Shown here one piece after another: positions 7,855-58,430 of a DNA stretch of 64,000 nucleotides (position 1 is the stretch's first letter; every line of letters begins with the position of its first letter). The notes below the pieces were generated by a model. The model was not told the DNA's origin, did not search any database, and saw only the letters and a list, made by a program, of their open reading frames with translations. The stretch comes from Promethearchaeati archaeon (GTDB taxonomy: Archaea; Asgardarchaeota; Heimdallarchaeia; Heimdallarchaeales; Heimdallarchaeaceae), in contig JABLTJ010000003.1 of the NCBI GenBank assembly GCA_013166775.1, forward strand, positions 64,001 through 128,000. Reading direction: 5' to 3'. The position numbers and the translations under genes were made by a program.

Positions 7855-8715
7855 ATGATACATATGTTTGATTTAGAACAAGTCTCTGAAAATGTATGGG
7901 CTCACACAAAGGGAGAGACAAGAGGAAATGTTGCATTTATCAGATTGAAGCAAAGCGGAATCATGGTTGATACAGGGATGGATCCAAAAACTGCTAAAAT
8001 AGCGAGAGATGCAGCTGAAAAAGAAATGGAAGTTCCGATCAAGTATCTAGTTATTACTCACCATCACGGTGATCATGTATTTGGTAATCAAGTACTGGAA
8101 GACTGTGAGATAATCTCTTCAAAAGACATGAAAGAAATAATGGAGGAACAAGTTTCTACAACTTGGACTAAAGAAAAGCTTGAGGAGAGAATGGAACAAG
8201 TTCCGGAATTCAAGGATAAATGGGATGATTTGCGATTTGTTCTGCCTACTACTACATTTGAAGGAGAATATACTATTGAGGAAGAAGGAGTAAAAGTTGA
8301 AATTGTACAAACAAATGGTCATACAAGAGGAAGTAGTTATTTATACATACCAAACGATAATATAGTTATAACAGGAGATTTGCTCTTTGCTGAAACTTTT
8401 CCATATGGGGGAGATCCTTCAGTAGATCCATATTTGTGGATAGATGCATATACTCAGATGATTTATTTGAACCCAGTTAAAGTGGTTCCAGGTCATGGTC
8501 CGATAACATTCAAAGAAGAACTTGAAATACAACAAAAATACCTAGAAATGTTAGTGAAAAAAATTGAGGATCTTGTTGTTGATGGATTGACCAAAGAAGA
8601 AGTTCTTGAGAGAACAGATTTTCCTGAATTTCCCTACGAAGTAGATCCAAATCGATTAAAATCAATGTTAGAAAGATGCTTCGACGTAATTAAAGAAGCT
8701 GTAGAAAGCTATTAG
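7855..8715 (+). CDS. MBL-fold metallo-hydrolase (cyclase-like)
   Basis: THHHGDH, GHT, TGD, PGHG motifs. Confidence 0.9.
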   Translation: MIHMFDLEQVSENVWAHTKGETRGNVAFIRLKQSGIMVDTGMDPKTAKIARDAAEKEMEVPIKYLVITHHHGDHVFGNQVLEDCEIISSKDMKEIMEEQVSTTWTKEKLEERMEQVPEFKDKWDDLRFVLPTTTFEGEYTIEEEGVKVEIVQTNGHTRGSSYLYIPNDNIVITGDLLFAETFPYGGDPSVDPYLWIDAYTQMIYLNPVKVVPGHGPITFKEELEIQQKYLEMLVKKIEDLVVDGLTKEEVLERTDFPEFPYEVDPNRLKSMLERCFDVIKEAVESY

Positions 8716-8757
8716 AATGAAATATGTGTGAAAAATTGATAAAGACATTTAATTTTC

Positions 8758-9480
8758 TCATAATCTTCCTTTTAGCCAAGAATCAATCGTTTCAAACATC
8801 TGTTGTCTCCCTGCATCTTTGGGAATTACATGACCACCATTTTCAATCCAAACTAGCTGTCTGTCTGTTGTATTGACATTACTGTAAATCAACTTAGCAT
8901 GTTTGTCAGGTACACTAAGATCTTTCTTACTTTGTATAATCAAGATGGGGACTTGAATGTTTTTTACTTGCTTCTTAGTTTCTTTCAACATTTTATATAA
9001 CTCACTTACACTCTTTATTGGATAATGCTCGTAGCTTTTGTGAGTAGATAGAGCTTCTAAATCTTCCCATCCACTTTCTTCATTTTTGTACCTTGGATAG
9101 ACATAATGAACTAATGGAATTGATAAGAGGTGCATACGCCAATCTGGTGCTTTGTAAACAGGAGCTAAAGTGATAATTCCTGCAACATCTTTATTCCTTG
9201 CTCCTAAAAGTAAGGTTATTGTTCCTCCCATAGATAATCCAACAACGAAAACTTTCTTACACTTATTACTTAATTCATCCAATTTTAATTGAGCAAATTC
9301 TACCCAATCAGTCCATTTTTTTGTAGTTAAATCTTCTTCCGTAGTTTCATGTCCTGGTAGTGTAATATTTCGAACAGAGAATCCTCTGTCTGTTAAGAAT
9401 TCTTCAAGAGGGATCATTTCAAAATGAGTTCCTGTAAAACCATGAATGAGTAAAAATCCTATTTTTTCATTAGAAGACAT
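8758..9480 (-). CDS. Carboxylesterase / monoacylglycerol lipase-like alpha/beta hydrolase
   Basis: HGFTG, GLSMGG, KDLSV, GGHVI; start moved to MSSNEK. Confidence 0.9.
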   Translation of the reverse strand: MSSNEKIGFLLIHGFTGTHFEMIPLEEFLTDRGFSVRNITLPGHETTEEDLTTKKWTDWVEFAQLKLDELSNKCKKVFVVGLSMGGTITLLLGARNKDVAGIITLAPVYKAPDWRMHLLSIPLVHYVYPRYKNEESGWEDLEALSTHKSYEHYPIKSVSELYKMLKETKKQVKNIQVPILIIQSKKDLSVPDKHAKLIYSNVNTTDRQLVWIENGGHVIPKDAGRQQMFETIDSWLKGRL

Positions 9481-9582
9481 TTGAATCGTGCTTAAATTTA
9501 GACAAATTTCATTCTTTAAAAATATTATAGTTTTAGAGTGTTTATCAGAAAAATTCAATAAGAGGTTAAACAAATTATCCTT

Positions 9583-10167
9583 GTGTTAGATTATTTGTGG
9601 TTTTGGTCAATAATCGTATTCTTCTCAGCTGTGTTAGTCGTATGGTTAATATTTTCCATATATAGAGGAATAAGACATGAAGTATTTCTGGTTGTAAGCT
9701 TTATTTTCTTGATAATAGCTTTGAGTGTCCCTGAAACTGCAGGTAGCTATGGTAGACTAGATTATTACACTCTGATTTCCATAATTCTAGCATCAATCGG
9801 ATTTACCTCCATTTTTGTGGGTGCTCTTTCTACTGGAAGAAGATGGGTAAAAAGAAGAGGAACAGCAAATCTTAACAAATTCACGAATTTGTTGTTTTTT
9901 GCCTATTTTAGACATCCAATAACTTTTGGATGCATGCTTATCTCATTTTCTACAATCTTCTTAATTAGTTCTATAGTCTCCAATGTTCTTGCAGTTGTTG
10001 CTATTTTATCTTTTGTCTTATCCTCATTTGAGAGAGACGTCTTTTTACAGAAAGCTTACGGGTATCCTTACAAATTTTACATGAAAAAAGTTCCACGATT
10101 TAATATATTTCATGGAATCTTAAGATCAATCCTAGTAAGAAAAAAGGAAATAGAAACAGAAGAATGA
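9583..10167 (+). CDS. ICMT/PEMT-family membrane methyltransferase-like protein
   Basis: TM helices, YFRHPITFG, YGYPYKFYMKKVPRF. Confidence 0.7.
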   Translation: MLDYLWFWSIIVFFSAVLVVWLIFSIYRGIRHEVFLVVSFIFLIIALSVPETAGSYGRLDYYTLISIILASIGFTSIFVGALSTGRRWVKRRGTANLNKFTNLLFFAYFRHPITFGCMLISFSTIFLISSIVSNVLAVVAILSFVLSSFERDVFLQKAYGYPYKFYMKKVPRFNIFHGILRSILVRKKEIETEE

Positions 10168-10247
10168 TTCCTAGATAGGTCTGCGTTTTCTTTGTGAATC
10201 AGAAATACATAATTTATTTCTCTCAAAGTACCTTCAGAGGAATCCAA

Positions 10248-10382
10248 ATGGAAGAAGATTTACTAGGAATACCTATGATAGGAGAGAAAATACTATGTTT
10301 TACTATACAGACACCGCATGGAAAAATGATTTTTCCAAAAGATATGAAAGAGAGTTGGTGGGTACTATTTCAAAGATATTGA
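10248..10382 (+). pseudogene. N-terminal fragment of an archaeal peroxiredoxin
   Basis: IPMIGEK...QTPHGKMIFPKDMKESWWVLF matches the Prx N-terminus; ends before the peroxidatic motif. Confidence 0.65.
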
Positions 10383-10450
10383 GGAATGAATACCTCAATC
10401 TTTTTCATTTTATAGAAAAGAAATAAGAACCCCCATACTTAATTTAGATT

Positions 10451-11293
10451 ATGAATGAAGAAATTCAGTTCATAACTACTAGAGAAAAACCTGAATTCAA
10501 GATAAGATTAGCAAAATTCCCTTCCAAGGAAGAGAAATATTCTCATCGTAACATAATTGTTATACCTGGCTGGTTAAGTGCTATAGATAATTTTACTCCA
10601 ATGGCTAAAGCTTTGCAAAAATATAGTAATGTTATAATCTATGAACCCAGAGGTTTTGGGAAATCCATTACTTCTCATAAGAAAGGTTATTTCAGTTCAG
10701 AAGAATATAATGATGAATTATCAAAAGTAATTGAACATCTTGGTCTGAAAAACAAGGAATTCATCATTCTTGGTAGCTGTTCAGGAGGTTCACAAACATT
10801 TTGTCACTATTTAGATGGAGACGGACCTAAACCTAGAGCTTTGGTGATTTTTAGCCCTCAAGAGTTCTACAATACTCCATTTTTTGTTCCTGCTCTAGGA
10901 TTAATCCCAACATTCATTATGATTTTTGTTCAGAAGATGATAATCGTACTCTATAGATTTTATTTAAAGGTTCGACGAACAGGAGAATCAGCTAATGTAA
11001 CTTGGGCAGCAGATAGATTGAGGAAAAATGATGATTGGAGTCTTCGTCGATTTGTTGTAGAGTTTATAGTTAAGTATGATATACGAGATAGACAAAAAGA
11101 GATTGATGTTCCAATACAAATGATAGTTGCAAAACAAGATCATTTTGTGGATCCTGAGAAATCAAAGAAATTTATTCATCTCACTGATTCAGAAATTGTT
11201 GAGATTCAGACTGATATGCACAGAATATACGAAGGTAAAGAAGATGAAATAGCCAAAAAAATGAATGATTTCTTGACTAAACTAGCCTATTAA
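10451..11293 (+). CDS. Alpha/beta fold hydrolase, paralog of 4782..5615
   Basis: IPGW, YEPRGFGKS, elbow GSCSG. Confidence 0.85.
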   Translation: MNEEIQFITTREKPEFKIRLAKFPSKEEKYSHRNIIVIPGWLSAIDNFTPMAKALQKYSNVIIYEPRGFGKSITSHKKGYFSSEEYNDELSKVIEHLGLKNKEFIILGSCSGGSQTFCHYLDGDGPKPRALVIFSPQEFYNTPFFVPALGLIPTFIMIFVQKMIIVLYRFYLKVRRTGESANVTWAADRLRKNDDWSLRRFVVEFIVKYDIRDRQKEIDVPIQMIVAKQDHFVDPEKSKKFIHLTDSEIVEIQTDMHRIYEGKEDEIAKKMNDFLTKLAY

Positions 11294-11299
11294 ATATCA

Positions 11300-12193
11300 T
11301 TAATCATCATCGTAATTACTCTTAATTGGTTCAAATACTGGCACTAGAGATAATATTACCGTTTTCTTTCCAGTATGAGTTCCAACTAAAGGTGTTGCAA
11401 TTGTAAAATATTCATTACGTATCTTCAGTCTATTCTTTATTTTGTCTCGCAGTTTGCTAGCACCCCTAGGATTAGCAACATGTGAAATTACCATGTCGAA
11501 AATTAGATTCTTGTTAACACGTTTTAACGATGCTTTCAGCATCCGATTCAACATTTGATTTTCAGAGAAAAGTCCAGGAAATTTTGGTTGAAGAACCTTT
11601 TTTTCCTCAAGTACCAAAATCGGCTTAATTCTCAAGAAATTTGTAGTCTTAAGAATAAATTTAGATTTCAATCTGCCTGATTTGTAGATGTTATCAAATG
11701 TATGAAAACCAGCGCATAATAATGAATCTTTTTTCATATGAGTGATTGTATCTTTAATTTCATTTATTGAGCAACCTTTATTTGCTAATTCTACAATATT
11801 TAAAGCAATTAAACCCTCTACTCCTGAAGCTGAATCGGAGTTTACTAAAACTACTTTATCACCAATCTTTCTAGCTGCTATAGCTGCAGAAGCGTAAGTT
11901 CCACTCAGTTCTTTAGATACTGTTACACAAAAAACAAAATCGTACTTCTGCTTCTGAATGAAATTTTCAAAAACCTTATAAAAACTTGCAGGATCTGGAG
12001 CAGCTGTAGTAGGGATTTTTTCTAATCTTTCAAGAATTTCATAATACTCATCAAATGAAATGTCTTTTCCGAGACGAAGTGCTTTATCTTCAAAGGAAAC
12101 AATTTGAGATATTATTTCTATTTTATTATCCCTTATGACATCGAGAGGTAGATCTGCAGATGTATCAGTAATTACTTTTATTTTCAAATGCAT
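11300..12193 (-). CDS. DegV/FakB family protein
   Basis: ITDTSADL, TTAAP, VSKELSGT, KSGRL, LVGTHTG. Confidence 0.9.
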   Translation of the reverse strand: MHLKIKVITDTSADLPLDVIRDNKIEIISQIVSFEDKALRLGKDISFDEYYEILERLEKIPTTAAPDPASFYKVFENFIQKQKYDFVFCVTVSKELSGTYASAAIAARKIGDKVVLVNSDSASGVEGLIALNIVELANKGCSINEIKDTITHMKKDSLLCAGFHTFDNIYKSGRLKSKFILKTTNFLRIKPILVLEEKKVLQPKFPGLFSENQMLNRMLKASLKRVNKNLIFDMVISHVANPRGASKLRDKIKNRLKIRNEYFTIATPLVGTHTGKKTVILSLVPVFEPIKSNYDDD

Positions 12194-12274
12194 CTAGATT
12201 TTATATTTGCACATAGCAAAAAACTTTACTGAATATACAAAATTAACTAAGTCAAAAATAAGACACAAGAATAA

Positions 12275-21302: not shown

Positions 21303-22505
21303 ATGTCTAAATTTGACCATGTAGAAGACGCGATGTTTGGACAATCGATATTCAAGAACGAATCAACATTATATCCAGAGTATGTTCCACCTGAATTACC
21401 AACGAGGGAAGAGGACATAGCTAGACTTGCAAGAAACTTTCGCTCTTTACTTGGAAAAGAAGGCTCATTCTCAGTTAATGTAGCAATTGTTGGACACGCA
21501 GGTATTGGTAAAACAGCTCTTTGTAAATACACAATGAAAAGATTCGAAGAAGCTGCAAATAATCGTAACATTCATGTTAAGTTTCTATATTACAATTGCC
21601 ATTCTTTTAGAAGTAAGACTGCTATTTTGAGAAATGTTCTTTCAGAACACTTCAGGATTCAATCTCGTGGTTTTAGTGATGAAGAGATTCTCGACATGCT
21701 AGTTAAACGCTTGACAAGGGAAGAGATTAGATTAATAATAGCTCTAGATGAAGCAAATATGTTAAATTCTGAAGACATCTTAAGTATCTTTCACTCTGGA
21801 GAATTATTTGGTTCAGAGCAGAGTATGATATCAACAATAATCATATCAAGACCAATAGAGTATAGATCTCTTCTAAATGTCCCTTTATCAGGACATATTC
21901 ATGATCAAATGGATATCTCAGGATATAGCAGAAATCAACTTCTCCAGATACTTGAATATAGAGCAAATATGGCTCTTTATCCTACCTCTTACACAGAAGA
22001 AACATTAAATCTAATCGCAGATATCTGTTCTTCCTCTCAGAATGCAAGACATGGTTTGGAAATTTTATATCGTGCTGGTAAGCTAACTGATTTAAAACAT
22101 GAGACTTTTATCAATCCTGAATATATACGTGCTGCAAAAGCTGACGTTTACCCTGAATTAAGAAGAGATGTTCTGGAGGAATTAAGATTACAAGAACTTT
22201 TAACAGCACTTGGAATAGCCAGAAAACTAACTATTAAAGGAATAACATCTACAACCATAGAAGATGGATATGAAAGCTATGTATTAACATGTGAAGAGTA
22301 TGACCATGAATTGAGAAGTAAATCTTCATTTCGATCAGCTTTGGAAACTCTTCATAAAGTTGGAATTTTAGGCAAAAGTGTTGGACCAATAGAAGAGGGT
22401 AAAAGAGGAAGAAGAGCTAAAATTACTACATTCGATATACCCGCAACTGTATTAGTTGAGAGAATAGAGAATATTCTCTCAAAACCTGATGTCCTTAAAG
22501 AATAG
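21303..22505 (+). CDS. cdc6: Orc1/Cdc6 replication initiator AAA+ ATPase
   Basis: YVPPELPTREE, Walker A GHAGIGKT, Walker B LDEA, C-terminal winged helix with RGRR. Confidence 0.92.
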   Translation: MSKFDHVEDAMFGQSIFKNESTLYPEYVPPELPTREEDIARLARNFRSLLGKEGSFSVNVAIVGHAGIGKTALCKYTMKRFEEAANNRNIHVKFLYYNCHSFRSKTAILRNVLSEHFRIQSRGFSDEEILDMLVKRLTREEIRLIIALDEANMLNSEDILSIFHSGELFGSEQSMISTIIISRPIEYRSLLNVPLSGHIHDQMDISGYSRNQLLQILEYRANMALYPTSYTEETLNLIADICSSSQNARHGLEILYRAGKLTDLKHETFINPEYIRAAKADVYPELRRDVLEELRLQELLTALGIARKLTIKGITSTTIEDGYESYVLTCEEYDHELRSKSSFRSALETLHKVGILGKSVGPIEEGKRGRRAKITTFDIPATVLVERIENILSKPDVLKE

Positions 22506-22841: not shown

Positions 22842-24173
22842 TTAGTATTTTGTTATTTTTAACCTTGATTTGCATGCTGGACAATTCCCATTTCCAACAA
22901 TCCATTGATAAAGATGATTCTTATGAAATGCAATATCACATGAAGGACATCTGATAAGATGCTCTTGATTGTCAATGATTTGTAAGCAGATAGAGCAAGT
23001 TACCTTAATCTCATCAGAAGTTTCAACATTATAGTCTAAAATCTTTTCTGCAAAATTAACACCATAAACTTGGGCTGGTGAATATTTTGCTCGTTGTTCT
23101 TGCATTTGATAATACTTGTCTGATGGCAGAACTACTGTTGAATGTAAATTCATTCTCTTCTTCTTATAATTAACTCGAATCCCAGTAACGACTATTACAA
23201 TGAATATAAATGAAAAAATTGCAAGGATTACTATCATTATAATAATCAAGAGATTAGGAATTGGAGGTGGAGGAGGGGGGGGTATAAAAGGATCAAATAT
23301 TGTCCAATAAAATGAAGGAGTTGATCGTAGAGAATCAATAGGGATATCATTTATGACTTGATTACTTTTCCTTAAGAAAATCCTTCCAATATTTTCTGTT
23401 TGATAGTGATCATAGAAAATAGAACACTTAATCTGAGTACTGTTGCTATAATCATCGGTGTAGAATCTTAGTTTGTACCAATGTTCTTCAAACAAACCTT
23501 CTTCAGTAATGATCTCCACTAATTCTAAATCACTATAAGAAAAGTTACCTGAATATATAACAATAGATTGATCTAATTCGTTGTAGATTTCACAAGTATA
23601 GTTGAATGAAACAACATTTCTTGTTGCTAAATGTAAAACGATCTTTTCAATAGATAAGTAGAACTCCGCATTACGCTCTACTCCAAAAAATACATTATCA
23701 AAAGCATTAATATGGGTCTCATATGTCCAAACAGGATAGTCGTCTGTTAAAACCAACTCAACATTAATTGAATCTACTTTTAGAGAAGAGAATTTTATCT
23801 GAATTACTCCATCCAACTCTATTTCTGAAGTGAAGTGATGAATTGATGTATCTCCTGAAAGAATCAACCAGCTGTTTAGTGTGCTATCATTTACATCAAA
23901 GATTAATTCAATTAATAATCCTTTATAACCATCACCAAACTCAATCCCCCAACTGTTGCATTGAATTGAGAACACAATTATCTGGTTGCTAACTGATACA
24001 TAATAAGAAGTCTCATTTAGATCTGAATCCACTCTCAATGAAAAATTGGTTTGAGTTTCATCAAGCAATATTTCACTTGAAAATACATCGTGACTGATTA
24101 AAGGGAGCATTATCAATACTATTAGAAAAAGTGATGGAAAAAAGATAAAGAGCTTGTTTCTTTTCATTGTCAT
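22842..24173 (-). CDS. Single-pass membrane protein with C-terminal RING finger (putative E3 ligase)
   Basis: Signal peptide, ectodomain, Pro7 linker, TM, CSIC-x12-CPSC-x4-HKNH-x10-CPAC; ATG 24173 overlaps the upstream stop. Confidence 0.8.
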   Translation of the reverse strand: MTMKRNKLFIFFPSLFLIVLIMLPLISHDVFSSEILLDETQTNFSLRVDSDLNETSYYVSVSNQIIVFSIQCNSWGIEFGDGYKGLLIELIFDVNDSTLNSWLILSGDTSIHHFTSEIELDGVIQIKFSSLKVDSINVELVLTDDYPVWTYETHINAFDNVFFGVERNAEFYLSIEKIVLHLATRNVVSFNYTCEIYNELDQSIVIYSGNFSYSDLELVEIITEEGLFEEHWYKLRFYTDDYSNSTQIKCSIFYDHYQTENIGRIFLRKSNQVINDIPIDSLRSTPSFYWTIFDPFIPPPPPPPIPNLLIIIMIVILAIFSFIFIVIVVTGIRVNYKKKRMNLHSTVVLPSDKYYQMQEQRAKYSPAQVYGVNFAEKILDYNVETSDEIKVTCSICLQIIDNQEHLIRCPSCDIAFHKNHLYQWIVGNGNCPACKSRLKITKY

Positions 24174-26305
24174 CACATTCGTTTTCTTCTTAAGATGTAA
24201 GCTAAAGCAAAAAGACTGAAAAGAGTAAAACTCCAAAGAAACGAACTGTTTTCTGCATAATAATGACCAGAGGGTTCATTTAGATCTTCATAGTTATACG
24301 ATATTTCTATCTCTCCGTAGTGATATATAGGATAGATTAAGACATAGCACTTTTCATCTGGTAGTACTACTTCTGAATAACCGCTAATTAACAACTCCCA
24401 ATTAGATGCATTAAAAACATAGATTTTTGTTTCAACTAATACAGAATCTGCTAGTATACTTCTACTTCTTTCCTCACCACTTTTGTTATCAATCTCTAAT
24501 AGAACAACATCATCGTATTCAAGGATACACATTTTTTCTTCAGCAAAATTGATGCTCTCTAATATTTGACTACTCACCGATACTCCAGTGTATTCTGCAG
24601 CTAGTAGCTGAATTTTGAAAACATGTCCAGCTGGAACGGTTATAGCAATTGAATAACAGTTACTTTCACTTTCTACTATTGCTGATAAATTCAAATCAAG
24701 CACTACCAAATCGAAAGCATAATCTAAGTTTTCTGATAATACAATTAAGAATGAATCATCAGTTTGATGACCCTTGATAATCATCATTATGTTTTGTTCA
24801 GGTATTAGTGTAACTTCTTGTCTTTTTCCAGATTCTAAGGTAGAAAACTCTTCCTCATCAGTGATTTTGATACTTTGAACTGTTGTAGTTATCTCGTTAC
24901 CCAACCAATCTTTGGTATAAATTTGATAGAATATTTCGCTAGTAAACAAGTCGTATGGTATAGAAAGCAAATATAGATCCTTTTCTACCTCTGTTCCATT
25001 TGAGATCAACCAAAATCCGTTCTTTTCCATTTTATAGTAAATCTCAACATAAGGTACTCCAGTAACATCTTTAACCTTACAATTAACATTCAGGAATCTT
25101 TCATCTGTAAATATGTCCACACTAGTATAAACCCAGAAATCTATTTCTGGAGGAAGATCATCTATTAGTACAGTAAACGTTTCAGTCCGATATTCTCTTA
25201 CATCAGCATCATTTAGATGACTCAAAACAACCTTAATCTTCAGATCCAATTCTACTGCATATTGTTCTACAAGCTCACCTATAATAAATGGTAAATCACT
25301 TGTTTGAAGTTCACCATCACCGAGTCTGATGTATGTTCCTCCAGTCAACATCGCTGCAGAATGTAATTGTTCAATAGTCTTATCATTAGAACTTGTAGCA
25401 ACTATTGAGCAGATTATATATCCTTCTTCAGAGAAATTTGCATACAACTCATACAATAAAGGTCCATCGTAATCAGCTTCCAGTGAATTGGGTGGTACTT
25501 CTAATGGACCGTCACCTATAATCTCTCCTGTATCACATGGTTCATCAGTGATCAAGGTCAGAAGCTTGACTGAATTATCTCTCCACGATAAGTAATTTTG
25601 TGCAACCCACAAAGCGTCTCCCCAAGGCTCATATCCTCCAGCTGCTGTAGTTGCTGAGAGTACATTTACTATGTGTTGAAAATCATTAGTTAAGTCATGT
25701 ACCAATGCTGGATTGTTATAGGGATCTTGCATTGGAATATCATAATCCCCTCCAAAGAATACCAATCCAATTCGTATGTCTGGAACTGTGTCCTCAAGTT
25801 CTTCGATAACTTCAATTAAATCAGCTTTTAGAACATCAATTTCGTCCTGCATGGAACCAGAAATATCTAAGACAATAGCAACATCAATTGGATCTCCAAC
25901 AACTGCTTGACTTGGAACAATATCTATAGTATACTCATCTGTTATCCATGATTCTTCAGGATCAAAGATATCTTTACTCGAAGTAAAATTATCGGCAAGT
26001 AAACCAAAATCATTGGTTTCAGGAAACATTTCTAATAATCTTAACTGTTGCTCTGAATAATTGGTTAAGTTAAAACGCACAGAAAATGAACCACCTGGTA
26101 AAATGCTGGGTATTTTATCCTCTCGATGCGAGTCGATGCTAGGAATCATTTCAATTGTTACATTATCCAATGGATTATTCACTAGGCTAGGAACAATAAC
26201 CGTTGTTGAATGACTGTTCTGTTCCCCAAAAACAGTTGCACTTGATGTAAAAAATATTCCAAGCACAAAAACTGCAATCAGTATTTCTTTTCTTTTCAGA
26301 TTCAT
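24173..26305 (-). CDS. Secreted vWA-domain surface protein with C-terminal anchor
   Basis: Signal peptide; MIDAS DISGS, LITDEP; tail FTLFSLFALAYILRRKRM. Confidence 0.85.
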   Translation of the reverse strand: MNLKRKEILIAVFVLGIFFTSSATVFGEQNSHSTTVIVPSLVNNPLDNVTIEMIPSIDSHREDKIPSILPGGSFSVRFNLTNYSEQQLRLLEMFPETNDFGLLADNFTSSKDIFDPEESWITDEYTIDIVPSQAVVGDPIDVAIVLDISGSMQDEIDVLKADLIEVIEELEDTVPDIRIGLVFFGGDYDIPMQDPYNNPALVHDLTNDFQHIVNVLSATTAAGGYEPWGDALWVAQNYLSWRDNSVKLLTLITDEPCDTGEIIGDGPLEVPPNSLEADYDGPLLYELYANFSEEGYIICSIVATSSNDKTIEQLHSAAMLTGGTYIRLGDGELQTSDLPFIIGELVEQYAVELDLKIKVVLSHLNDADVREYRTETFTVLIDDLPPEIDFWVYTSVDIFTDERFLNVNCKVKDVTGVPYVEIYYKMEKNGFWLISNGTEVEKDLYLLSIPYDLFTSEIFYQIYTKDWLGNEITTTVQSIKITDEEEFSTLESGKRQEVTLIPEQNIMMIIKGHQTDDSFLIVLSENLDYAFDLVVLDLNLSAIVESESNCYSIAITVPAGHVFKIQLLAAEYTGVSVSSQILESINFAEEKMCILEYDDVVLLEIDNKSGEERSRSILADSVLVETKIYVFNASNWELLISGYSEVVLPDEKCYVLIYPIYHYGEIEISYNYEDLNEPSGHYYAENSSFLWSFTLFSLFALAYILRRKRM

Positions 26306-26870
26306 GTTTATCTATGTAATATCAATATATCGAGATATTAAAATGTTTTGTTGGAGGAATTTGTGGCCTGTTTAAGATTAATTTATCATAATTGTGATAT
26401 AGTGAGCGTTCTAATTCGAAAATACTTTCGATTTATTAATAAAGATTAATCAGTTCAAAGTTATTAAAGTGACTCGAAAAGTTTAATTTTACAAAGAACA
26501 TTGTAATTATGAAGGTTACAATCTTGAATGAAATGATACCTGAGATATCTGCAAAAGAATTTCTTTACTTTATCTGTGAATCTTCTCGACTTTACTGATA
26601 GTGTTAACAAAAGCAATTGGCAATCGTTTCTATGTTATATTAATTACAGAAAAATTAAGAAACAAATACAGTCATATATGTACAAAGTAGATGGATAATT
26701 GAAACATTTAACCTACGAATCCCTTTGAATGGTTCTAGTTTTTCCTTTAATTTGCTTCTAGTATATTATCTATTCATATAAGCTCAAACGATTTTTAACT
26801 TAGTTCAACAAATTATGTTTTTGGGAGAAAATAAGTTCTCTCTCAAACAAAACTTAATGGAAGTGATAAA

Positions 26871-28168
26871 ATGAAAAAAGTAAGTTCAATTCTTATTTGT
26901 TTTCTAATTCTATTCAACTTAAACATACTACTATGAACTGTGAAGATTTCAATATCACTAAAAGAAATGCTCTCTTCTGTACTGGGACATATGAAATCGG
27001 AGGAGATGGAGAACCCGATAATGCAATTGATTGGATAAACATAAACGAAGCGTTTACTAGCTATTCATGGTTAAAAAATAACCATGGAAATTATAAACTA
27101 GCAATCTTGGATACTGGATTAGATGAAGGAACATTTGTTTATTTCAGAAATAAGTACTCATCATCTTTGCTAAATCTTCGTCTTTTTAATGCTAATGGTC
27201 AAGAAGTTCAACCATATGATGCTATAGATTATGTTTCGGAATTTCATCATGGTACCTTTGTTACAAGTATAATAATACAATTACTAGAAAGAGATTCTCA
27301 CAATGTTAATGCACAAATTGATGTATATGTGATTGCTGATTCCGATGGTGATTTTGATGAAGATATTATGTATGATCAACTTAATAGAATTAAGACTTGG
27401 AATACTCAGAATCCAAATAATAGATATAAAGTTATTACCACTGCTTATAGAGATTCAAAGACTAGTGAACCAAGCTATACTTCACTAATTAACCAGCTTG
27501 TTAGTAACCAGAACTGTATATTCATAGCAGCATCAGGGAATTATGTTTATGGTGATCTTGAACATGGTACAGATCCAGACGACGAAAACTGGGGAAGCTA
27601 TCCTTCGAAACTACCTAAGGTGATAGGAGCAGGAGGAATATATGGCTATAACGTTCCAACAGAATACAGTAGCAAAAAAATAAATCGAATGACTGTACAG
27701 TCAGCATTTAGAAAACCTGAATTTAAGACAGGAGGTTACTGGCTTGGAAGTTGTTACAAACACAATGCACCTCTTTCAACTGCTGGAGTAGAATTAGCTG
27801 CTCCCGGATTTAAGATTGAAGGTTTCATGGATAAAGATGGTTTGGAAGGGGTAGAGAACTATATAGCTACCGGAACAAGTCTTTCAGCCCCTCAGGTAGC
27901 AGTAGCAGCTTATCTTGCAGCAAGAGCTAAATATTACTTGGATTCGTCTGATCCTTTGACTTATGATGACTTTTATGCAGCTATAGTTCAATCATCAGAA
28001 AATGATCCAAGTGGTAGATATAAGTCAACATACGACAAAATAAGGCATGAAAAAGTTGGAATACCAACAGCTAACCTTGGTACATATACAACTTATTTCT
28101 CATACAGAGTCGGGTATGGTTCTTTAGATGTACATGACATGATAGAATTTATAACTGATCTATCCTAA
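26871..28168 (+). CDS. S8 subtilase; signal peptide lies in a different frame (frameshift near 26925)
   Basis: LDTG, HGTFV, AASGN, GTSLSAP; ATG 26871 gives MKKVSSILICFLILFNLNILL* out of frame with the catalytic body. Confidence 0.8.
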
Positions 28169-28177
28169 GGTGAATAG

Positions 28178-29601
28178 ATGAAAAAAAAACAGAAGATTCT
28201 ATTATCTTGTGGGATTATTATACTAATAAACGTAATTTTAATCCCCTCTGTTTTTTTTTTATTCAACGATCTCCAAAGATAAAGGAGTTTTTATATCCTA
28301 ACCCTCTTTTCAATAATGGAACATTTTCAGACATGGTTATTGAAAACGATGATAAGATTCATTTCGGAATCAGAAGTTACAAACCTAATAATTCTGGTCC
28401 AACATATGCCCTTCTAGATTTTAGAAAGAATGCAGAGAATATTTTTTATTATGAAGCAATTAAACCCACAACTGGTTTTATTGATCAGTATCAAATTAGA
28501 ATCATATTGGATTCAGATAACAAACCCATGATTTACTATTACTATCTAAATTCTTGGGGATTCTTTCGTTCAAGAATATATATACTAGATGATGAGGAAT
28601 GGAAGTTTCCTTCTTTCTTCAACCCAACGCTAAGGTTAATTACTAACGGCCCTCTATTAAATTGGTTTAATTTTCAACCAGGAATTACATTTTATTCAAG
28701 CATTTATCAAGAACCGAGAATCAGCTATTATAATACTACACCTATTTTATATATGCAAAATTCTAGTACGGTTCATTTCTTAAATTCCTCTTTTATTGAA
28801 ATTCAGAATGCGGAAAGTTACGCACCTGGCGATTTTCAGATAATAGACACTTCTTTAGCGATTTTATGGACCAAGTATGAAAATTCCTCCTACTCCCACC
28901 CTTATTTAACAATAAAATGGGCACGAGAGGGATGGAAAATTTACAAATTGGGAAATGAGTTGGAGAACCATTTCTTAGCAAGAGCAATCATACCTTATGA
29001 TAACGTTTTCAATGTTTTCTATTATGATAATGGTGAATACAGTAATGATGCAAGATTATTTTTAGAGAAATTTTATAATTCAAGCTACTCTACAAAAGAA
29101 GAAATTACTTCCTTCAATGGTGAAATTTTCTTTTATGATGAATCAATTACAATGGTCTCTCCAGATTGCTTTGCGTTTTTATATTCAAAAAGCTCTTATG
29201 AACCTGACAGTCAATTTGATTTATACCTAGGAATTTACAATAGTTCATATTATCGTGAGATACAACTAACAGATACTCCAAATTATTCCGAATACTGGGC
29301 AAACTGCGAAACAGGGAATCAATATCTTCATTTTACATGGGGACATTTTGGTTATGAAGGTACAAATACAGTTGAATGGCATACTACGAGCATTTTTTAT
29401 AATAGGATCTTAATTTCAGATCTCAACAATCTTGAAAAGATAGAAGACATTGATTTCATAACATTATCACCACAGTTTGGAAAGAATAGCTCTTTCTCTT
29501 TGGTTCTTAATTACCTCTCAAGTTCATTGAATCATAAACAAGAATTTATTATCTTTCTTTCAACTATTCTCTGGAATTTTAAGAAAAATAAGAGGATATA
29601 G
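28178..29601 (+). CDS. Secreted beta-rich surface protein, frameshifted at a T10 tract (28251-28260)
   Basis: ATG 28178 encodes signal MKKKQKILLSCGIIILINVILIPSVFF; one extra T joins it to the long ORF. Confidence 0.65.
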
Positions 29602-29611
29602 GAGATTCTTT

Positions 29612-30121
29612 ATGAAATCTTTTGATGATATTATAAATTCCTTTGTAAAATTGCTTATGGAATTAGAAAATTATTCAAGTGTAGTTTCTGTTACATTAGG
29701 AGGTTCACAAGTGTCTGGTGTGGTTGATTCATTCAGTGATGTAGATTTGATGCTTATTTGCTTTGAGAATTCAAGCAAGAAATTATATGATGAACTTAAA
29801 AGATCAATAAGAAATGAATCTTATTTTAGATTTCTTGATGTGAAGATTATAGAGACATCTCATATACATCAGATTAATAATAGCATATCGTCTCCATTTT
29901 TCTATCATTTCATGAAAAATTCAATCGTCTTGATAGGAAAAAATCTAAAAGATGATTTCAAACTGAAAGAGATATGGTGTTATCATGCAATTAATAGCTA
30001 TCAAGACAAACTAAGAGCGGTAGAGGAATTGATAGAAAATTATCAGAACTATTCTGAATCAAAGATACTATTATATGAAATTGCAAAGCGTTTCATAATT
30101 ATAGCTGAACTACTCTTCTGA
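29612..30121 (+). CDS. Nucleotidyltransferase (Pol-beta/MNT-like) domain protein, probably truncated
   Basis: GGS...DSFSDVDL motif. Confidence 0.7.
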   Translation: MKSFDDIINSFVKLLMELENYSSVVSVTLGGSQVSGVVDSFSDVDLMLICFENSSKKLYDELKRSIRNESYFRFLDVKIIETSHIHQINNSISSPFFYHFMKNSIVLIGKNLKDDFKLKEIWCYHAINSYQDKLRAVEELIENYQNYSESKILLYEIAKRFIIIAELLF

Positions 30122-30126
30122 TAGAT

Positions 30127-30372
30127 TTGGAAACATCTAAAGATTTGCTAACTTATTATATTGATTATAATATTACTTGGGGATTTGGGAAAATAAATGA
30201 GGGTAATTATTCCAAGTTTGGCTTATCAGTTGTTCCAACCTTCTACTTTTTCAATCAAACTGGATATGAAATTAATCTAAATAAGGGAGAAATGAATTTA
30301 TCACAATTAATTGATTTTATTGATCTTGAAATAAATATAACAAAAACATATGATCTAAAGATAATAGTCTGA
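30127..30372 (+). pseudogene. C-terminal fragment of a thioredoxin/TlpA-like protein
   Basis: FGLSVVPTFYFFNQTG cis-Pro motif; no CxxC. Confidence 0.5.
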
Positions 30373-30377
30373 TAGGT

Positions 30378-30938
30378 TTACCAATCAATATCAAATGTGA
30401 ATTCCATAATTGATGGTTCCAGAATTTTTCCATCTAGATAATTAATTAGTGTCATTTTGCTTGCAAGATATTCTTGAATATCACTCTTCAATATTTCCAA
30501 AGCAATACTGTCTAGTTCTTTCATTGTGTTTAATGTAACATAGAAAGTAGACATATTACTATCGTATTCAACATCAAATCTCTTGAAAGTGTGTTTAAAG
30601 AATTTAGAATTAAACATTTCTTCTATTTCTTGATACCGTCCTTTCAAAAACCATTCAGGCACAATCTCTTTCAGTTCATCAATTGAGCCATCAGATTCTC
30701 CTTGCTTTTGTTTGTGAAAAATACTTAACCATTTGAATATAATCTCATTTGTTTTATTTTCTAGAAAATCTTCCAGTCCATTTTTTTTTGCGCAGTTGCT
30801 TTTAACTTGATCAAAATATTCAGCAAACAACTCATCGGAATACTTGATTCTTTTAGCTTTGAACCAATCCCCTACTATTTGAAGAATCTCACCAACAGAT
30901 AGATTAAATGAAAATATATCTTCTTCACTTTCACTCAT
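30378..30938 (-). CDS. Hypothetical protein
   Basis: Long ORF; likely ATG start MSESEE. Confidence 0.65.
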   Translation of the reverse strand: MSESEEDIFSFNLSVGEILQIVGDWFKAKRIKYSDELFAEYFDQVKSNCAKKNGLEDFLENKTNEIIFKWLSIFHKQKQGESDGSIDELKEIVPEWFLKGRYQEIEEMFNSKFFKHTFKRFDVEYDSNMSTFYVTLNTMKELDSIALEILKSDIQEYLASKMTLINYLDGKILEPSIMEFTFDIDW

Positions 30939-31141
30939 GGTAATCCCTTTCGCTAATGTAGAATCATTATACAGTTGTTTTTCTCGTTTATAATCATTTC
31001 CAAGAATCAAAAATCCTCACACTTATTATTATTAAATTACTATTACCTTACTTTACTGCCCTTAATTGATATTTGCTTATACATCTCAAAATATCGATAT
31101 ATTCCGATATCCTTATATGCGTTGATGAGAAGACTCAAGCA

Positions 31142-31486
31142 ATGAGTGAAAAATATTTCAAGAAGATGATTGAATTATTGGAAGCTATGAATTCGAGATT
31201 GGAAAGAATCGAAATGAAGCTTTCTGTAGATTCTACACCTGTTTCTTCCTTAGATTTTTTGTCAAAAATACCTAGATCTCACATTGAAACATTTTCTGCT
31301 GTGCAGGAGCTTGGTGAAGCAACTTGTACAGAAGTAGCAGAAATTACAGGGAGGTCTCATAATTTAGAATCACGCTATTTAGTTCGCTTAAAAGAATTAG
31401 GGATGCTAAAAAACAAGAGAGTACCGGTTTCTGATTCTTCTAAAAGAGGGACAGAAGTTAAATACTTCATAGAGGAGGGTAACTGA
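31142..31486 (+). CDS. Winged-helix DNA-binding protein with N-terminal coiled coil
   Basis: ATCTEVAEITGRSHNLESRYLVRLKELG. Confidence 0.8.
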   Translation: MSEKYFKKMIELLEAMNSRLERIEMKLSVDSTPVSSLDFLSKIPRSHIETFSAVQELGEATCTEVAEITGRSHNLESRYLVRLKELGMLKNKRVPVSDSSKRGTEVKYFIEEGN

Positions 31487-31487
31487 G

Positions 31488-32255
31488 ATGAAAACAATCT
31501 GTGTTCACAGTTATAAGGGAGGTACAGGGAAGACAACTTTTCTCTTAAATATAGCGGGTACTCTAGCAAAGAACAAGAAAAAGACTCTCGCTGTTGATTA
31601 TGATTTACGAGCTCCTTCCTTTCAATCATACTTTAAATTTGAAAGACAAGCTTATTTGACAGATTATCTCCTAGAAGAAATAAGTTTGAATAGAGTAATC
31701 TTTCCTTGTGAAGCTTCTGCAGATGTAAGATTGGATTTAATATTTTCCTCAATGGATTTTCTGAACCAGCATTCAAAACAAAGGGATAAGCTATCAAGAG
31801 ATGATGCAAAATTCCTAGCTAAACTATATGCTCTTCAAAAATCGATATATGGAAACTATGATTATCTTCTGATTGATACAATCCCTGGTTTCTTCTATAG
31901 GTCAATAGATACTATGATGGTATCTGATGTGATAATTGTAGTTGCAACCCCCAGTACTTCAAACGTTTTAGGAATACAGGAACTCTGCAATAACATCTAT
32001 TCCATGCTCAAAGAAGAGAGAAAGATGATCCTAATGATAAATAAAATAGAAGAGGAAGGAATAGAAGCTGATAAAGAGATTTTTGAGAAGAATCTTGCTT
32101 CTTTAAAGAAAATAGGTAAGGAGTATTTTGATGAAATGATTGAGATTCCTTATTTCAAGATTTTGAGTGAAAGAATACATGCATTTGAGAAAGAACCTCA
32201 CACAGAATTCTTAAATTCAATAGATGGAATTATCAAATTGTTAGTCTCTGATTAA
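31488..32255 (+). CDS. MinD/ParA family ATPase
   Basis: Deviant Walker A KGGTGKT, VDYD, LLIDT. Confidence 0.9.
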   Translation: MKTICVHSYKGGTGKTTFLLNIAGTLAKNKKKTLAVDYDLRAPSFQSYFKFERQAYLTDYLLEEISLNRVIFPCEASADVRLDLIFSSMDFLNQHSKQRDKLSRDDAKFLAKLYALQKSIYGNYDYLLIDTIPGFFYRSIDTMMVSDVIIVVATPSTSNVLGIQELCNNIYSMLKEERKMILMINKIEEEGIEADKEIFEKNLASLKKIGKEYFDEMIEIPYFKILSERIHAFEKEPHTEFLNSIDGIIKLLVSD

Positions 32256-32256
32256 A

Positions 32257-33636
32257 ATGAAACCTAGAAATAATAAAACACCAGATAAAGAGATTGAAAA
32301 AGCTAAAGATTATTTGTTAGATTCAAAGAAAAATATAGAGAGATTAAAAAGTGGTAAAAAACCAAGGAGAAAACTTAGATTCATTATTGACGAGAACAGA
32401 TTTATAGTTTTTCTAATCACTGCATTGATAGTTTTTTCTGCTTTTATTCCACTATTTATTCCTAAACCTCCTCCTATAATTGCAGATCCTATGCAAGATA
32501 CTGTTAATGATACAATATATCTAATTAACTCGAACTTTACAAATGATAATAGTTTTCCTTTTAACAGTCATACTGAAACCACTCCAAGTTCTGAATTAAT
32601 TTTACTTTTTTCTCTTGCTAACTCATTTTTGAAACAAACCAATTTTGTTCCAATATCAAATGATCTTTTCGTAAGAATCCAAAACATAGAATATATCTTA
32701 GAAAATGATAGTTTTGTTGAATATTCAAATTCATCTGAAATTTTAACTATCGACAAACAGTTTCTAGGTATCTACACATTACTTCAAGCTAACCATGCAA
32801 CAAAAGGTACAGAATATTCGATGGAATTACAGGATGTATATTCAGTTTTAACTTACACATTGAACGAGTATTATTCAGAAGACTTAGAAATGATGGTCAA
32901 ACCTAGGAGCAATAAGAGTTATCTTATAGATCAAGCAGTGTCAATGTTTACTATCGCTACATTTTCGCTAGTTACAGAAGTTGATTTCATTAGCGGCTTT
33001 TCTTTGTTAAGTATTCTCCAAAATTTAATCTATTCTATCACAGAAAATTTCTATAACACATCTACCAATAGGTTTTATCATGAATTTGATTTAACGACAA
33101 ATACTTCTACTACTAGTGCAAATGTTGAATCTTTAATATTTCTTGATTTAGGCTTATCTAAGAGTGAGAGAAGATTTCCTTATGATATTGAATTCACATA
33201 CTTCACTCCCTATAGTTTACATCAAGATATAGTAAATGAAAGGGTGGATGATGATTGGATAGTTCATAATTATTTAAGTTTTGATAGCAATATTTCACTA
33301 AAGAATCAAGCGCTATTCACACTATGCTCGTACTTGTTGAGATTAAACAATGTAGGTGATGAGTTACTCAATGCTACTCTTGAACAGTTTATTTTTGATG
33401 AGGGTTTCATAGAAAACTTCTCCTTGCAAGAAGTCACTTGTGAATCTTGCTTATATGGTTTAATAGCGATAGCTAGCGAAAAATGGACAGCCATGCAAAA
33501 TGATAGAGAAGGAAGCTATATAAAAACAGAAGATTCATTGTATCCTCTTATAATTATTCCACTTCTCATAGTCACTGTGCTATTTAGAAAGAGACGGAAG
33601 AAGAGATTTAAGAGTGGTGGCCGAGGTGGGATTTGA
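32257..33636 (+). CDS. Membrane protein with N- and C-terminal TM helices; possible alpha/alpha-toroid ectodomain
   Basis: TM near residues 48-67, C-terminal TM plus RKRRKKR; helical repeats such as SYLIDQA and SLKNQA. Confidence 0.65.
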   Translation: MKPRNNKTPDKEIEKAKDYLLDSKKNIERLKSGKKPRRKLRFIIDENRFIVFLITALIVFSAFIPLFIPKPPPIIADPMQDTVNDTIYLINSNFTNDNSFPFNSHTETTPSSELILLFSLANSFLKQTNFVPISNDLFVRIQNIEYILENDSFVEYSNSSEILTIDKQFLGIYTLLQANHATKGTEYSMELQDVYSVLTYTLNEYYSEDLEMMVKPRSNKSYLIDQAVSMFTIATFSLVTEVDFISGFSLLSILQNLIYSITENFYNTSTNRFYHEFDLTTNTSTTSANVESLIFLDLGLSKSERRFPYDIEFTYFTPYSLHQDIVNERVDDDWIVHNYLSFDSNISLKNQALFTLCSYLLRLNNVGDELLNATLEQFIFDEGFIENFSLQEVTCESCLYGLIAIASEKWTAMQNDREGSYIKTEDSLYPLIIIPLLIVTVLFRKRRKKRFKSGGRGGI

Positions 33637-57222: not shown

Positions 57223-58430
57223 CAACGTATATTCTAAGGTGTATAACCTGCAAAAAGGAATTTGATTCCCAACCAGGTCTCTATTATTGTGAAGATTGTG
57301 GGAAAATAATGGGGACTTTGGAGGTTGTTTATGACTATGAATCTATTAAAGAAGATCCGGTTGTAAGAGAGAAGAAATTTGATAAAAAAGCTTCAATGTA
57401 TCAATTCAGTTTTCTTTTACCCACTATATCAAAACTGCAACTCGATGAGTATGTTGGAGGTACTCCTCTGTATAAGTTTGATCTTCTTGGTATGAAAGAT
57501 GTACTCGTTAAGTATGATGGTTCTAATCCTTCTAGTTCTTACAAAGATCGAGCAAGCTCTATTGCAATTAACAAAGCTATAGATGAGGGTAATGATATTC
57601 TGTTTTGCGCATCTACTGGTAATGCAGCAGCATCATTAGCAATGCTTAATGCATATACTGATATGAAAACATACATTTTCGTTCCTGCAGCAATACCTGA
57701 TGGTAAAAGAGCTCAACTTGAAATATCAGGTGCAGAAGTATATGCAGTTGAAGGGACCTATGATGAGGTTTATGACTTATCCCTTGATTTAGGTCTCGAA
57801 AAAGGATGGTATTGTAGACACGCTGCAATTAATCCCTATCTTCTAGAAGGAAAGAAAACAGGAGCTTTCGAAATAGTAATTCAAAATGATTTTGAGGTTC
57901 CTGATTACGTTTTCATTGGTGTTGGTGATGGAACAGTTGTTAGTTCTCTTTACAAAGGATTTTGGGAGTTTAGAGAAATTGGCTTAACAGACAAAATTCC
58001 AAAAATAATTGGTGTTCAAGCTGAAGGAATTCCGGCGATAAAGGAAGCTTTTGAAAAAGGAAAACCATACAAACCTATTGCAATTGATGGGAGTACAGTA
58101 GCTGATAGTATATCAGTAGGAAAACCCAGAGATGTCATCAAAGCATGCACTTATGTTGAGGCTAGTAATGGATTTTTCATATCTCTCACAGATGATGAGA
58201 TTCTCGATGCAATTAAAGAGTTAGGAAAAACAGGAATATTTGCAGAACCAGCTGGAGCTGTACCATACGGAGGGCTGAAAAAACTTATTTACGAAGAAAA
58301 AATCACTGAATCAGACACTGTTTGTTTAGTTATTACTGGAAATGGACTAAAAGATGTCAATGCAGTTAAAGACGCGATTAGTAAAACAATATTCACTACT
58401 GAAGAAGTAATTAAAAGGTTTGAAGAATGA
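57219..58430 (+). CDS. Threonine synthase-like fold-type II PLP enzyme
   Basis: NPSSSYKDR, ASTGNAA, EGKKT, ITGNGLKD. Confidence 0.85.
   Translation: MTTYILRCITCKKEFDSQPGLYYCEDCGKIMGTLEVVYDYESIKEDPVVREKKFDKKASMYQFSFLLPTISKLQLDEYVGGTPLYKFDLLGMKDVLVKYDGSNPSSSYKDRASSIAINKAIDEGNDILFCASTGNAAASLAMLNAYTDMKTYIFVPAAIPDGKRAQLEISGAEVYAVEGTYDEVYDLSLDLGLEKGWYCRHAAINPYLLEGKKTGAFEIVIQNDFEVPDYVFIGVGDGTVVSSLYKGFWEFREIGLTDKIPKIIGVQAEGIPAIKEAFEKGKPYKPIAIDGSTVADSISVGKPRDVIKACTYVEASNGFFISLTDDEILDAIKELGKTGIFAEPAGAVPYGGLKKLIYEEKITESDTVCLVITGNGLKDVNAVKDAISKTIFTTEEVIKRFEE

Follow-up and report, generated by a model that had tools for sequence, protein, structure and literature searches.

We analysed a 64,000-nucleotide stretch of DNA (hereafter the window; C107:64001–128000) from a Heimdallarchaeaceae metagenome-assembled genome of 3.85 Mb that is 89% complete, and focused on two adjacent genes on its minus strand. 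The vWA gene (24173..26305) encodes a 710-residue type-I membrane protein with a von Willebrand factor A (vWA) domain, and the RING gene (24173/24167..22842, depending on the start codon) encodes a receptor-like membrane protein of 441 or 443 residues with a RING finger. Sequence comparison and structure prediction suggest that the two proteins could well form a two-chain surface complex, whose RING would recruit ubiquitin-charged conjugating enzyme (E2∼Ub) and control turnover of the complex or its sorting by ESCRT (endosomal sorting complexes that are required for transport). We give this explanation about an even chance.

In eukaryotes, much of the ubiquitin marking of membrane proteins for ESCRT sorting is done by receptor-type RING ubiquitin ligases (E3s) such as ZNRF3/RNF43 and the PA-TM-RING proteins, in which TM stands for a transmembrane helix. 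Asgard archaea possess ubiquitin, ubiquitin-activating (E1) and E2 enzymes, soluble RING E3s, and ubiquitin-binding ESCRT-I and ESCRT-II. To our knowledge, no membrane substrate and no membrane E3 has so far been tied to the Asgard ubiquitin system, and we found no published description of the present module in the literature on Asgard or Heimdall RING, vWA, integrin and membrane proteins. We propose that the operon-like gene pair gives rise to two single-pass membrane proteins that would assemble at the cell surface: (i) a first chain that contributes a vWA domain, whose metal-ion-dependent adhesion site (MIDAS) is intact, and a short basic cytoplasmic tail; and (ii) a second chain with two extracellular jellyrolls and an intracellular RING finger. 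This second chain would use its first jellyroll to dock, by strand pairing, onto the β-sandwich that follows the vWA domain. The RING would most likely recruit one of the E2∼ubiquitin conjugates of this genome to the membrane and ubiquitylate membrane-proximal lysines, whether its own, those in the lysine/arginine (K/R) tail of the partner or those of proteins recruited by the complex. In this way the RING would govern how the surface complex is turned over or sorted by ESCRT.

The two genes meet at 24165..24180 (minus strand), where the coding strand reads ...CGA ATG TGA TGA CAA TGA AAA G... An earlier sequence-only reading had placed here a TGATG (24171–24175) in which the stop codon of the vWA gene overlaps the next ATG. 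This is correct for the coding strand (the plus strand reads CATCA), and the TGA (24175–24173) and the in-frame ATG (24173–24171) share an A. Orthologues and the public gene call start the RING protein at the following ATG (24167–24165; MKRNK). Since either ATG could serve as the start, the true spacing is a 1-nt overlap or a 5-nt gap. The ATG at 24167 lies 4 nt 3′ of a GTGAT that matches the anti-Shine–Dalgarno 3′ end of the 16S rRNA (GGATCACCTCCT), so that the vWA stop codon falls within a Shine–Dalgarno-like site of the RING gene. Orthologues contain GGTGA, GTGAT or GGAG at the corresponding position, 4 nt ahead of the RING start codon, and a tight junction (a 4-nt gap or a 4-nt overlap) recurs in the Heimdallarchaeaceae relatives. 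This layout fits an internal gene of an operon, and suggests that the two genes may be co-transcribed and, as the sequence-only reading had stated outright, might be translationally coupled.

The RING domain (residues 392–435; 22869..23000, minus strand; C107:86869–87000) is of the C4H2C2 type and has the ligand pattern C393-x2-C396-x12-C409-x2-C412-x4-H417-x2-H420-x10-C431-x2-C434, together with W424. The zf-RING_2 family is the sole Pfam family above its cut-off in the RING protein (29.7 bits over the full-length protein, 33.7 bits with the domain by itself and 33.9 bits in a genome scan; cut-off 27.3). Across 23 orthologues with 34–81% identity, the RING is the best-conserved segment of the protein, and all eight zinc ligands and W424 are invariant. 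The nearest PDB sequences are those of Arkadia (E = 1.3e-7), followed by RNF165, EL5, RNF24, RNF38, RLIM, AMFR, ZNRF3 and RNF13; by sequence, the nearest solved relatives of the RING are active RING-H2 E3s. We take residues I395, W424 and P432 and a basic linchpin at position 435 to be the E2-contact positions known from the structures of c-Cbl, RNF4 and BIRC7. I395 (in CxIC) is kept in at least 90% of the orthologues, W424 and P432 (in CPxC) do not vary, a K or R stands at position 435 in 22 of the 23, and all four align with their counterparts in Arkadia. W424 lies four residues after the sixth ligand, which is the RING-H2 position; the PHD position is two residues before the seventh.

The AlphaFold2 (AF2) model of this region has predicted local distance difference test (pLDDT) values of 79–87 and is RING-like in its secondary structure, with short strands at 406–408 and 415–417 and a helix at 418–428. 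Foldseek and VIA comparisons with the whole RING-protein model returned matches to the ectodomain jellyrolls only. In the C4H2C2 variant the third and fourth ligands are C-x2-C, and x4 separates the fourth from the fifth, where x2–3 is usual; it would give one C2H2 site and one C4 site. Judged by its sequence, the domain is a bona fide zf-RING_2 finger of the RING-H2 type, and it probably acts as an E3.

The rest of the RING protein appears to have a receptor-like layout that consists of a signal peptide, an ectodomain, a single TM helix and the cytoplasmic RING, a topology predicted from sequence features and from the AF2 model (mean pLDDT 72). The N-terminal hydrophobic segment spans residues 8–26 (signal or anchor). 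The ectodomain (residues 30–305; 23259..24086, minus strand) consists of tandem jellyrolls (∼40–147 and 150–270) and a Pro-rich stalk, whose Pro7 run (P299–P305) is lineage-specific, with only PP as the conserved part. Hydropathy and an AF2 helix place the TM segment at residues 308–341 (23151..23252, minus strand), followed by a basic NYKKKR stretch that is consistent with the positive-inside rule, and all six N-x-S/T sequons of the ectodomain and cytoplasmic part lie in the former. The TM helix and the RING are joined by ∼50 residues (pLDDT 44–64) with conserved Y364-S-P366, F374 and Y381. Every element that the sequence-only reading had listed for this protein (i.e. signal peptide, ectodomain, Pro7, one TM helix and the exact RING ligand spacing with its Trp) is present, and the zf-RING_2 match and predicted secondary structure agree with its naming of the finger.

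That reading had also likened the protein to RNF43/ZNRF3 and GRAIL. The likeness holds for the topology and appears to fail for the ectodomain, which is modelled as two jellyrolls and not as a PA domain. In VIA comparisons, the first jellyroll (38–147) matched PirA (Z 10.9, rmsd (root-mean-square deviation) 3.2 Å, 96 residues aligned), the GOLD domain of p24 (Z ∼10) and PPC/collagen-binding domains (Z ∼9). No PA domain was found in the RING protein, either by Pfam at E values up to 1 or among the structure matches, so we liken the protein to the PA-TM-RING ligases in its working only and do not file it among them. As far as the model goes, the ectodomain is a generic jellyroll binding fold. 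All 28 homologues of the RING protein come from Heimdall-group sources. An exhaustive hidden Markov model (HMM) search of 1.84 billion representatives for the jellyroll ectodomain returned 18 proteins, all of the same ∼430–470-residue family or fragments of it, and no other architecture.

The vWA protein, encoded like its neighbour on the minus strand, also has the features claimed for it, i.e. a signal peptide, the DISGS motif and a C-terminal anchor. Its N-terminus consists of KRK and a hydrophobic segment. In the AF2 model (mean pLDDT 81.5), the signal peptide is followed by a β-sandwich (49–129), the vWA domain (140–351), a second β-sandwich (353–480), a jellyroll (494–672), a TM helix (689–709) and an RRKRM tail. 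The protein passes the Pfam cut-offs for both VWA (25.3 bits; cut-off 23.8) and VWA_2 (28.3 bits; cut-off 27), and VIA comparison with vWA domains gave Z 18–19 at rmsd 2.4–4.0 Å over 173–240 aligned residues. The MIDAS motif D147-I-S149-G-S151 (25853..25867, minus strand) is part of a set of residues that are invariant in 25 orthologues (D147, S149, G150, S151, T253-D254-E255 and E226-P-W-G-D230). By these sequence criteria the MIDAS is intact, with DxSxS and D254 kept as candidate metal ligands; the assignment of its Thr ligand is presumptive because the usual Thr position is held by the invariant E226-P-W-G-D230. The cytoplasmic tail is basic and comprises 5–8 residues across orthologues.

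The pair is conserved as a pair. A ∼700-residue vWA gene followed by a ∼430-residue RING gene was present at every Heimdallarchaeaceae locus that we fetched. Among 31 Heimdallarchaeaceae genomes, the RING ectodomain was found in 24 and the vWA protein in 23. Whenever a single contig carries both, the two genes adjoin each other in the same orientation, and this pair is conserved at 27–47% identity. At one locus (L008) the downstream flank differs and the vWA–RING pair is still intact. At another (L010, G005:C2), the RING orthologue is split into two frames (8842–9237 and 9374–10030), either by a frameshift or by an assembly error.

The ectodomains of the two chains are also predicted to dock. 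In a two-chain model run with alignments that we supplied ourselves and with three controls, ipSAE reached 0.61 (runs 0.61, 0.64 and 0.44), compared to 0.00 for the best control. Of 80 solved complexes 58 attain this ipSAE mark, as do 2 of 110 mismatched pairs, counts that are only rough here because of the supplied alignments. From run to run at least 91% of the contacts are shared, and the partner pLDDT is at least 81. The predicted interface brings together strands of the vWA protein (residues 419–436; 24998..25051, minus strand), including the invariant W432, and the most conserved motif of the RING-protein ectodomain (xSWLIL..D..xHxFT, residues 100–117; 23823..23876, minus strand), in which S101, W102, I104, D108, H112 and F114 are invariant. 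On the RING-protein side, conservation is 0.71 at the interface and 0.51 in the rest of the ectodomain (permutation p 0.0005, without a burial control).

The source genome encodes the machinery that such a ligase would need. A profile scan of its contigs gave 16 zf-RING_2 matches, 4 UQ_con (E2-like) matches and 2 ubiquitin matches. ThiF-type E1 genes adjoin the ubiquitin genes on contigs C102 and C27, which makes two ubiquitin clusters, and C27 also encodes a Vps28/UEV fusion and EAP30. The E1-like genes lie at C102:26607–27506 and C27:10489–11226, the ubiquitin genes at C102:26182–26343 and C27:11419–11616, and two of the E2-like genes at C1:94861–95232 and C102:21191–21664. A ubiquitin–ESCRT cluster of the C27 type was previously described for Heimdall AB_125 (PMC9192718). 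Because ubiquitin, E1-like and UQ_con genes are all in the genome, as the sequence-only reading had expected of an Asgard archaeon, its ligase proposal does not fall for want of an E2 or of ubiquitin; the conserved gene pair, the RING-like sequence and predicted secondary structure of the finger, and the agreement of the two-chain model with its idea of a joint module point the same way. An Asgard (Helarchaeial) E1/E2/RING cascade has been reconstituted in vitro, and RING E3 activity in Asgard archaea was demonstrated there for the small operon RING only (10.1101/2023.07.25.550441). At least 10 of the 16 RING proteins of the source genome contain TM segments, and the C-x2-C-x4-H-x2-H variant is common to ∼7 of them. 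No obvious surface-protein partners of the other TM-RING genes were found in their 7-kb flanks, and only one of the five vWA genes of this genome lies beside a RING gene.

Among the families of the Heimdallarchaeia, the vWA family occurs in f1 and also in f5 (13 of 22 genomes) and f7 (10 of 12). Pairing in f7 emerged only from a search that started at vWA genes. The f7 vWA protein shares 31% identity with the one studied here over 294 residues (E = 2e-30), including the EPWGD motif, and at all five f7 loci examined its gene is followed on the same strand by a gene for a 936–1007-residue type-I TM-RING protein. This partner has an ectodomain of ∼600 residues and a cytoplasmic part with a helical region, a zinc ribbon and a C4H2C2 RING; its homology to our RING protein is confined to the RING (hhalign 97.5%, E = 7.6e-12), and its ectodomain is not detectably related. 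The f7 genes are separated by 34–265 nt. In f5, two loci (L054, 7541–9913, and L056, 7780–10107, both on the minus strand) contain a convergent gene beside the vWA gene for a type-I protein of 775–790 residues, in whose cytoplasmic tail a zinc ribbon comes after a Cys-rich, RING-like pattern (CQIC...CSQC...C...CPNC). This protein could be a further, third form of the RING subunit. We also inspected four long RING proteins of other families (G045, G043, G037 and G036), and none adjoins a vWA gene. The jellyroll-type RING subunit is confined to one family, and the pairing of a vWA protein with a TM-RING protein was found in only three of the seven Heimdallarchaeia families sampled. The f7 and f5 loci indicate that a vWA subunit and a membrane RING subunit are the conserved elements of the module and that the RING ectodomain is variable.

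Several observations weigh against a two-chain ligase complex. First, the third to fifth ligands of the finger follow a PHD-like C-x2-C-x4-H pattern instead of the canonical RING-H2 C-x-H-x2-H, and there are weak sub-threshold matches to PHD, C1 (C1_2) and Prok-RING_1. Second, the cytoplasmic tail of the vWA protein is so short that in one orthologue it contains no lysine. Third, tight coupling is not universal, given the f7 gaps and the convergent f5 partner, and adjacency alone is weak evidence because the region is largely syntenic (e.g. Orc1/Cdc6, AsnC and AMP phosphorylase genes). Finally, the score of the predicted complex is the model's own confidence obtained with alignments of our making, and the vWA-side interface is no more conserved than the remainder of the vWA protein (p 0.18).

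The most serious competitor is an outside-in sensor, close to what the sequence-only reading had favoured, in which a ligand or a cell contact at the MIDAS would switch the RING ligase and start ubiquitylation signalling. The intact and invariant MIDAS, the predicted ectodomain heterodimer, the retained E2-contact residues and the conserved motifs in the segment that joins the TM helix to the RING would all suit a sensor, for which ZNRF3/RNF43 provide a eukaryotic precedent. However, the sequence gives no sign of allostery or regulation, and single-pass helices joined to the RING by a low-confidence linker of ∼50 residues offer no visible route of transmission. A constitutive membrane E3 dedicated to its partner is simpler and explains the same data. 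We regard signal-dependent switching as rather unlikely.

Alternatively, the zinc finger could lack ligase activity and serve structure or interaction instead; as a PHD-like module or a generic treble clef, it would tether the surface complex to lipids or to a partner in the cytoplasm. Its PHD-like ligand spacing and the weak PHD, C1_2 and Prok-RING_1 matches are what such a module would show, and the genome has 16 RINGs and only 4 E2-like genes. PMC7159879, which cites Burroughs et al. 2011, mentions many prokaryotic RING-like fingers without a proven E3 role. Against this, zf-RING_2 alone exceeds its Pfam cut-off, W424 occupies the RING-H2 and not the PHD position, I395, P432 and K/R435 are conserved, and the top PDB matches are all active E3s. 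We consider a non-catalytic finger improbable.

A third possibility concerns the neighbouring genes. A plus-strand cluster of three tightly packed genes at 31142..33636 encodes a 115-residue protein, a ParA/MinD-like ATPase (255 residues) and a 459-residue surface protein (32257–33636) with TM helices near both ends; the first and the last of these have no Pfam matches. This cluster lies close to an Orc1/Cdc6 gene (21303–22505), and in relatives the corresponding genes (for a ∼117-residue protein, the ATPase and a ∼455-residue protein) are divergent from the vWA gene and directly adjoin it. The five genes might constitute an envelope or positioning system, in which the RING would serve the positioning of the cell surface or chromosome and not receptor turnover. 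Four genera of the family retain all five genes as a block, at one locus between other flanks, and across the 31 genomes its three surface proteins are present or absent together. In the closed genome G007 (L011, G007:C1:1194000–1212000, 8385–12268), both the vWA gene and the ParA cluster are absent, and an HD-domain gene and a DDE transposase gene occupy the place of the vWA gene. The RING gene of this genome has lost its signal-peptide region and has an in-frame stop upstream, and it retains an intact 403-residue open reading frame (ORF) with all RING ligands. We read this as a deletion associated with an insertion sequence (IS), by which the vWA gene and the ParA cluster were lost together with the signal-peptide region of the RING gene.

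Since all five genes are neighbours, however, shared absence could result from a single missing contig or deletion. In the window, moreover, the two halves of the block are split by ∼4.7 kb (26306–31072) between the vWA gene and the ParA cluster, which has no counterpart at this place in any relative examined and looks like an insertion. It contains genes for an S8 subtilase (26897–28168), a 464-residue orphan protein (28207–29601), a 169-residue ORF (29612–30121) and a 210-residue ORF (30378–31010, minus strand). The 464-residue ORF beside the S8 peptidase gene was considered as the orthologue of the 455-residue protein of the relatives and rejected; the true orthologue is at 32257–33636. No ParA cluster was found beside the f7 vWA–RING pairs, so we count this cluster among the neighbours of the module and not among its components. 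A five-gene positioning system is in our view very unlikely.

That the two proteins are independent and merely share a collinear, origin-proximal region, where synteny at most loci also covers Orc1, AsnC, AMP phosphorylase and further genes, is hardly credible, given junctions of −4 to +5 nt with a Shine–Dalgarno-like motif, a pair that is kept where the flank changes, the recurrence of the pairing in f7 with a RING partner that is non-homologous outside the RING, and a complex model that passes its controls.

We compared the preferred two-chain ligase complex with known systems. The layout of signal peptide, ectodomain, TM helix and RING is common to the RING protein and to ZNRF3/RNF43, PA-TM-RING (RNF13, RNF128/GRAIL and plant RMR) and ATL/EL5 proteins. 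PDB matches of the RING include ZNRF3, RNF13, RMR (AT5G66160), RNF24 and EL5 from these same E3s, and the contact Ile, Trp, Pro and linchpin are kept. Unlike the eukaryotic receptor-type E3s, the protein described here has jellyrolls, a C4H2C2 finger with C-x2-C-x4-H and an adjoining vWA partner, and it is archaeal and known from sequence. With the RINGs of archaeal ubiquitin operons, i.e. those of the Helarchaeial cascade and of Caldiarchaeum subterraneum (PMC5654768), it has in common a RING finger in a genome with eukaryote-like ubiquitin, E1 and E2, and like operons occur on C102 and C27. In contrast to these small proteins encoded in ubiquitin clusters, it is a type-I membrane protein that is encoded far from ubiquitin genes and has a surface partner.

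The gene pair also invites comparison with integrin α–β, because both comprise two type-I chains, one of which carries a MIDAS-bearing vWA head flanked by β-strands. Almost all of the top 50 Foldseek matches of the vWA protein are integrin β chains (E = 1.6e-11), and VIA aligned its residues 99–381 with the integrin β I-like domain and hybrid strands (Z ∼18, rmsd 3.1–4.0 Å, 197–240 residues). The invariant E226 may sit in the loop of the metal-binding Glu of integrin β. The unrelated vWA domain of TFIIH p44, however, ties with integrin (Z 19.2, rmsd 2.4 Å, 173 residues aligned), and the Pfam Integrin_beta match (22.3 bits) covers residues 138–192 only and stays below its cut-off (24.8), so the likeness is one of layout only. 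Membership of the integrin family was rejected on these two grounds and on the 5–8-residue tail. Unlike integrin, moreover, the module has no PSI or EGF domains, no NPxY tail and no propeller in the partner, and the predicted contact is made by the β-sandwich after the vWA domain and not by the vWA head. TFIIH p44/Ssl1 and plant RGLG1 (PMC7155146) are known cases in which one chain joins the functions of a vWA domain and a RING-type finger. That chain is cytosolic or nuclear, whereas here each domain would have a chain of its own and the membrane would lie between them.

Some further observations concern the wider RING complement and the source genome. With its 16 copies the RING family is expanded in the source genome. 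The number of RINGs per genome is mostly 8–16 in the Heimdallarchaeaceae and 2–7 in f5, and three RING copies of the source genome, including the ubiquitin-operon RING on C102, contain Asp or Glu at the sixth ligand position. Beyond the window, the same genome encodes another type-I RING protein of receptor-like layout (C35:64028–66154, minus strand; 708 residues) that comprises a signal peptide, an unrelated ectodomain of ∼530 residues, a TM helix (555–573), a zinc ribbon and a RING-H2-like finger; its gene lies at a contig end. This protein was considered as a fused vWA–RING form and rejected, as it has only the RING in common with the RING protein studied here and nothing in common with the vWA protein. 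In addition, the 3′ region of the 16S rRNA gene (C52, minus strand near 58088) contains ∼35 extra bases, AAAATTCTAGAAGATCTTCTAGTTTTTCGGAAAGG, between AAGGTATCCGTA and GGAACCTGCGGATGGATCACCTCCT, an insertion in the last helix.

In brief, the module is a candidate membrane-anchored RING with a dedicated surface partner and a defined predicted interface, in a genome that encodes a ubiquitin–ESCRT system. If its ligase activity and pairing hold, pre-eukaryotic ubiquitin control of surface proteins would become testable with recombinant proteins. More tentatively, and with doubt prevailing, Heimdallarchaeia might possess class-wide two-chain receptors, in which a MIDAS/vWA chain and a RING chain with an interchangeable ectodomain would translate binding outside the cell into membrane ubiquitylation that feeds the ubiquitin–ESCRT pathway. 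The restriction of the jellyroll form to one family and the occurrence of the pairing in three of seven families suggest that it may be a lineage innovation and not the ancestor of the eukaryotic ligases. If the class-wide reading is true, receptor-type E3 signalling and ubiquitin-dependent sorting of membrane proteins would be older than eukaryotes.

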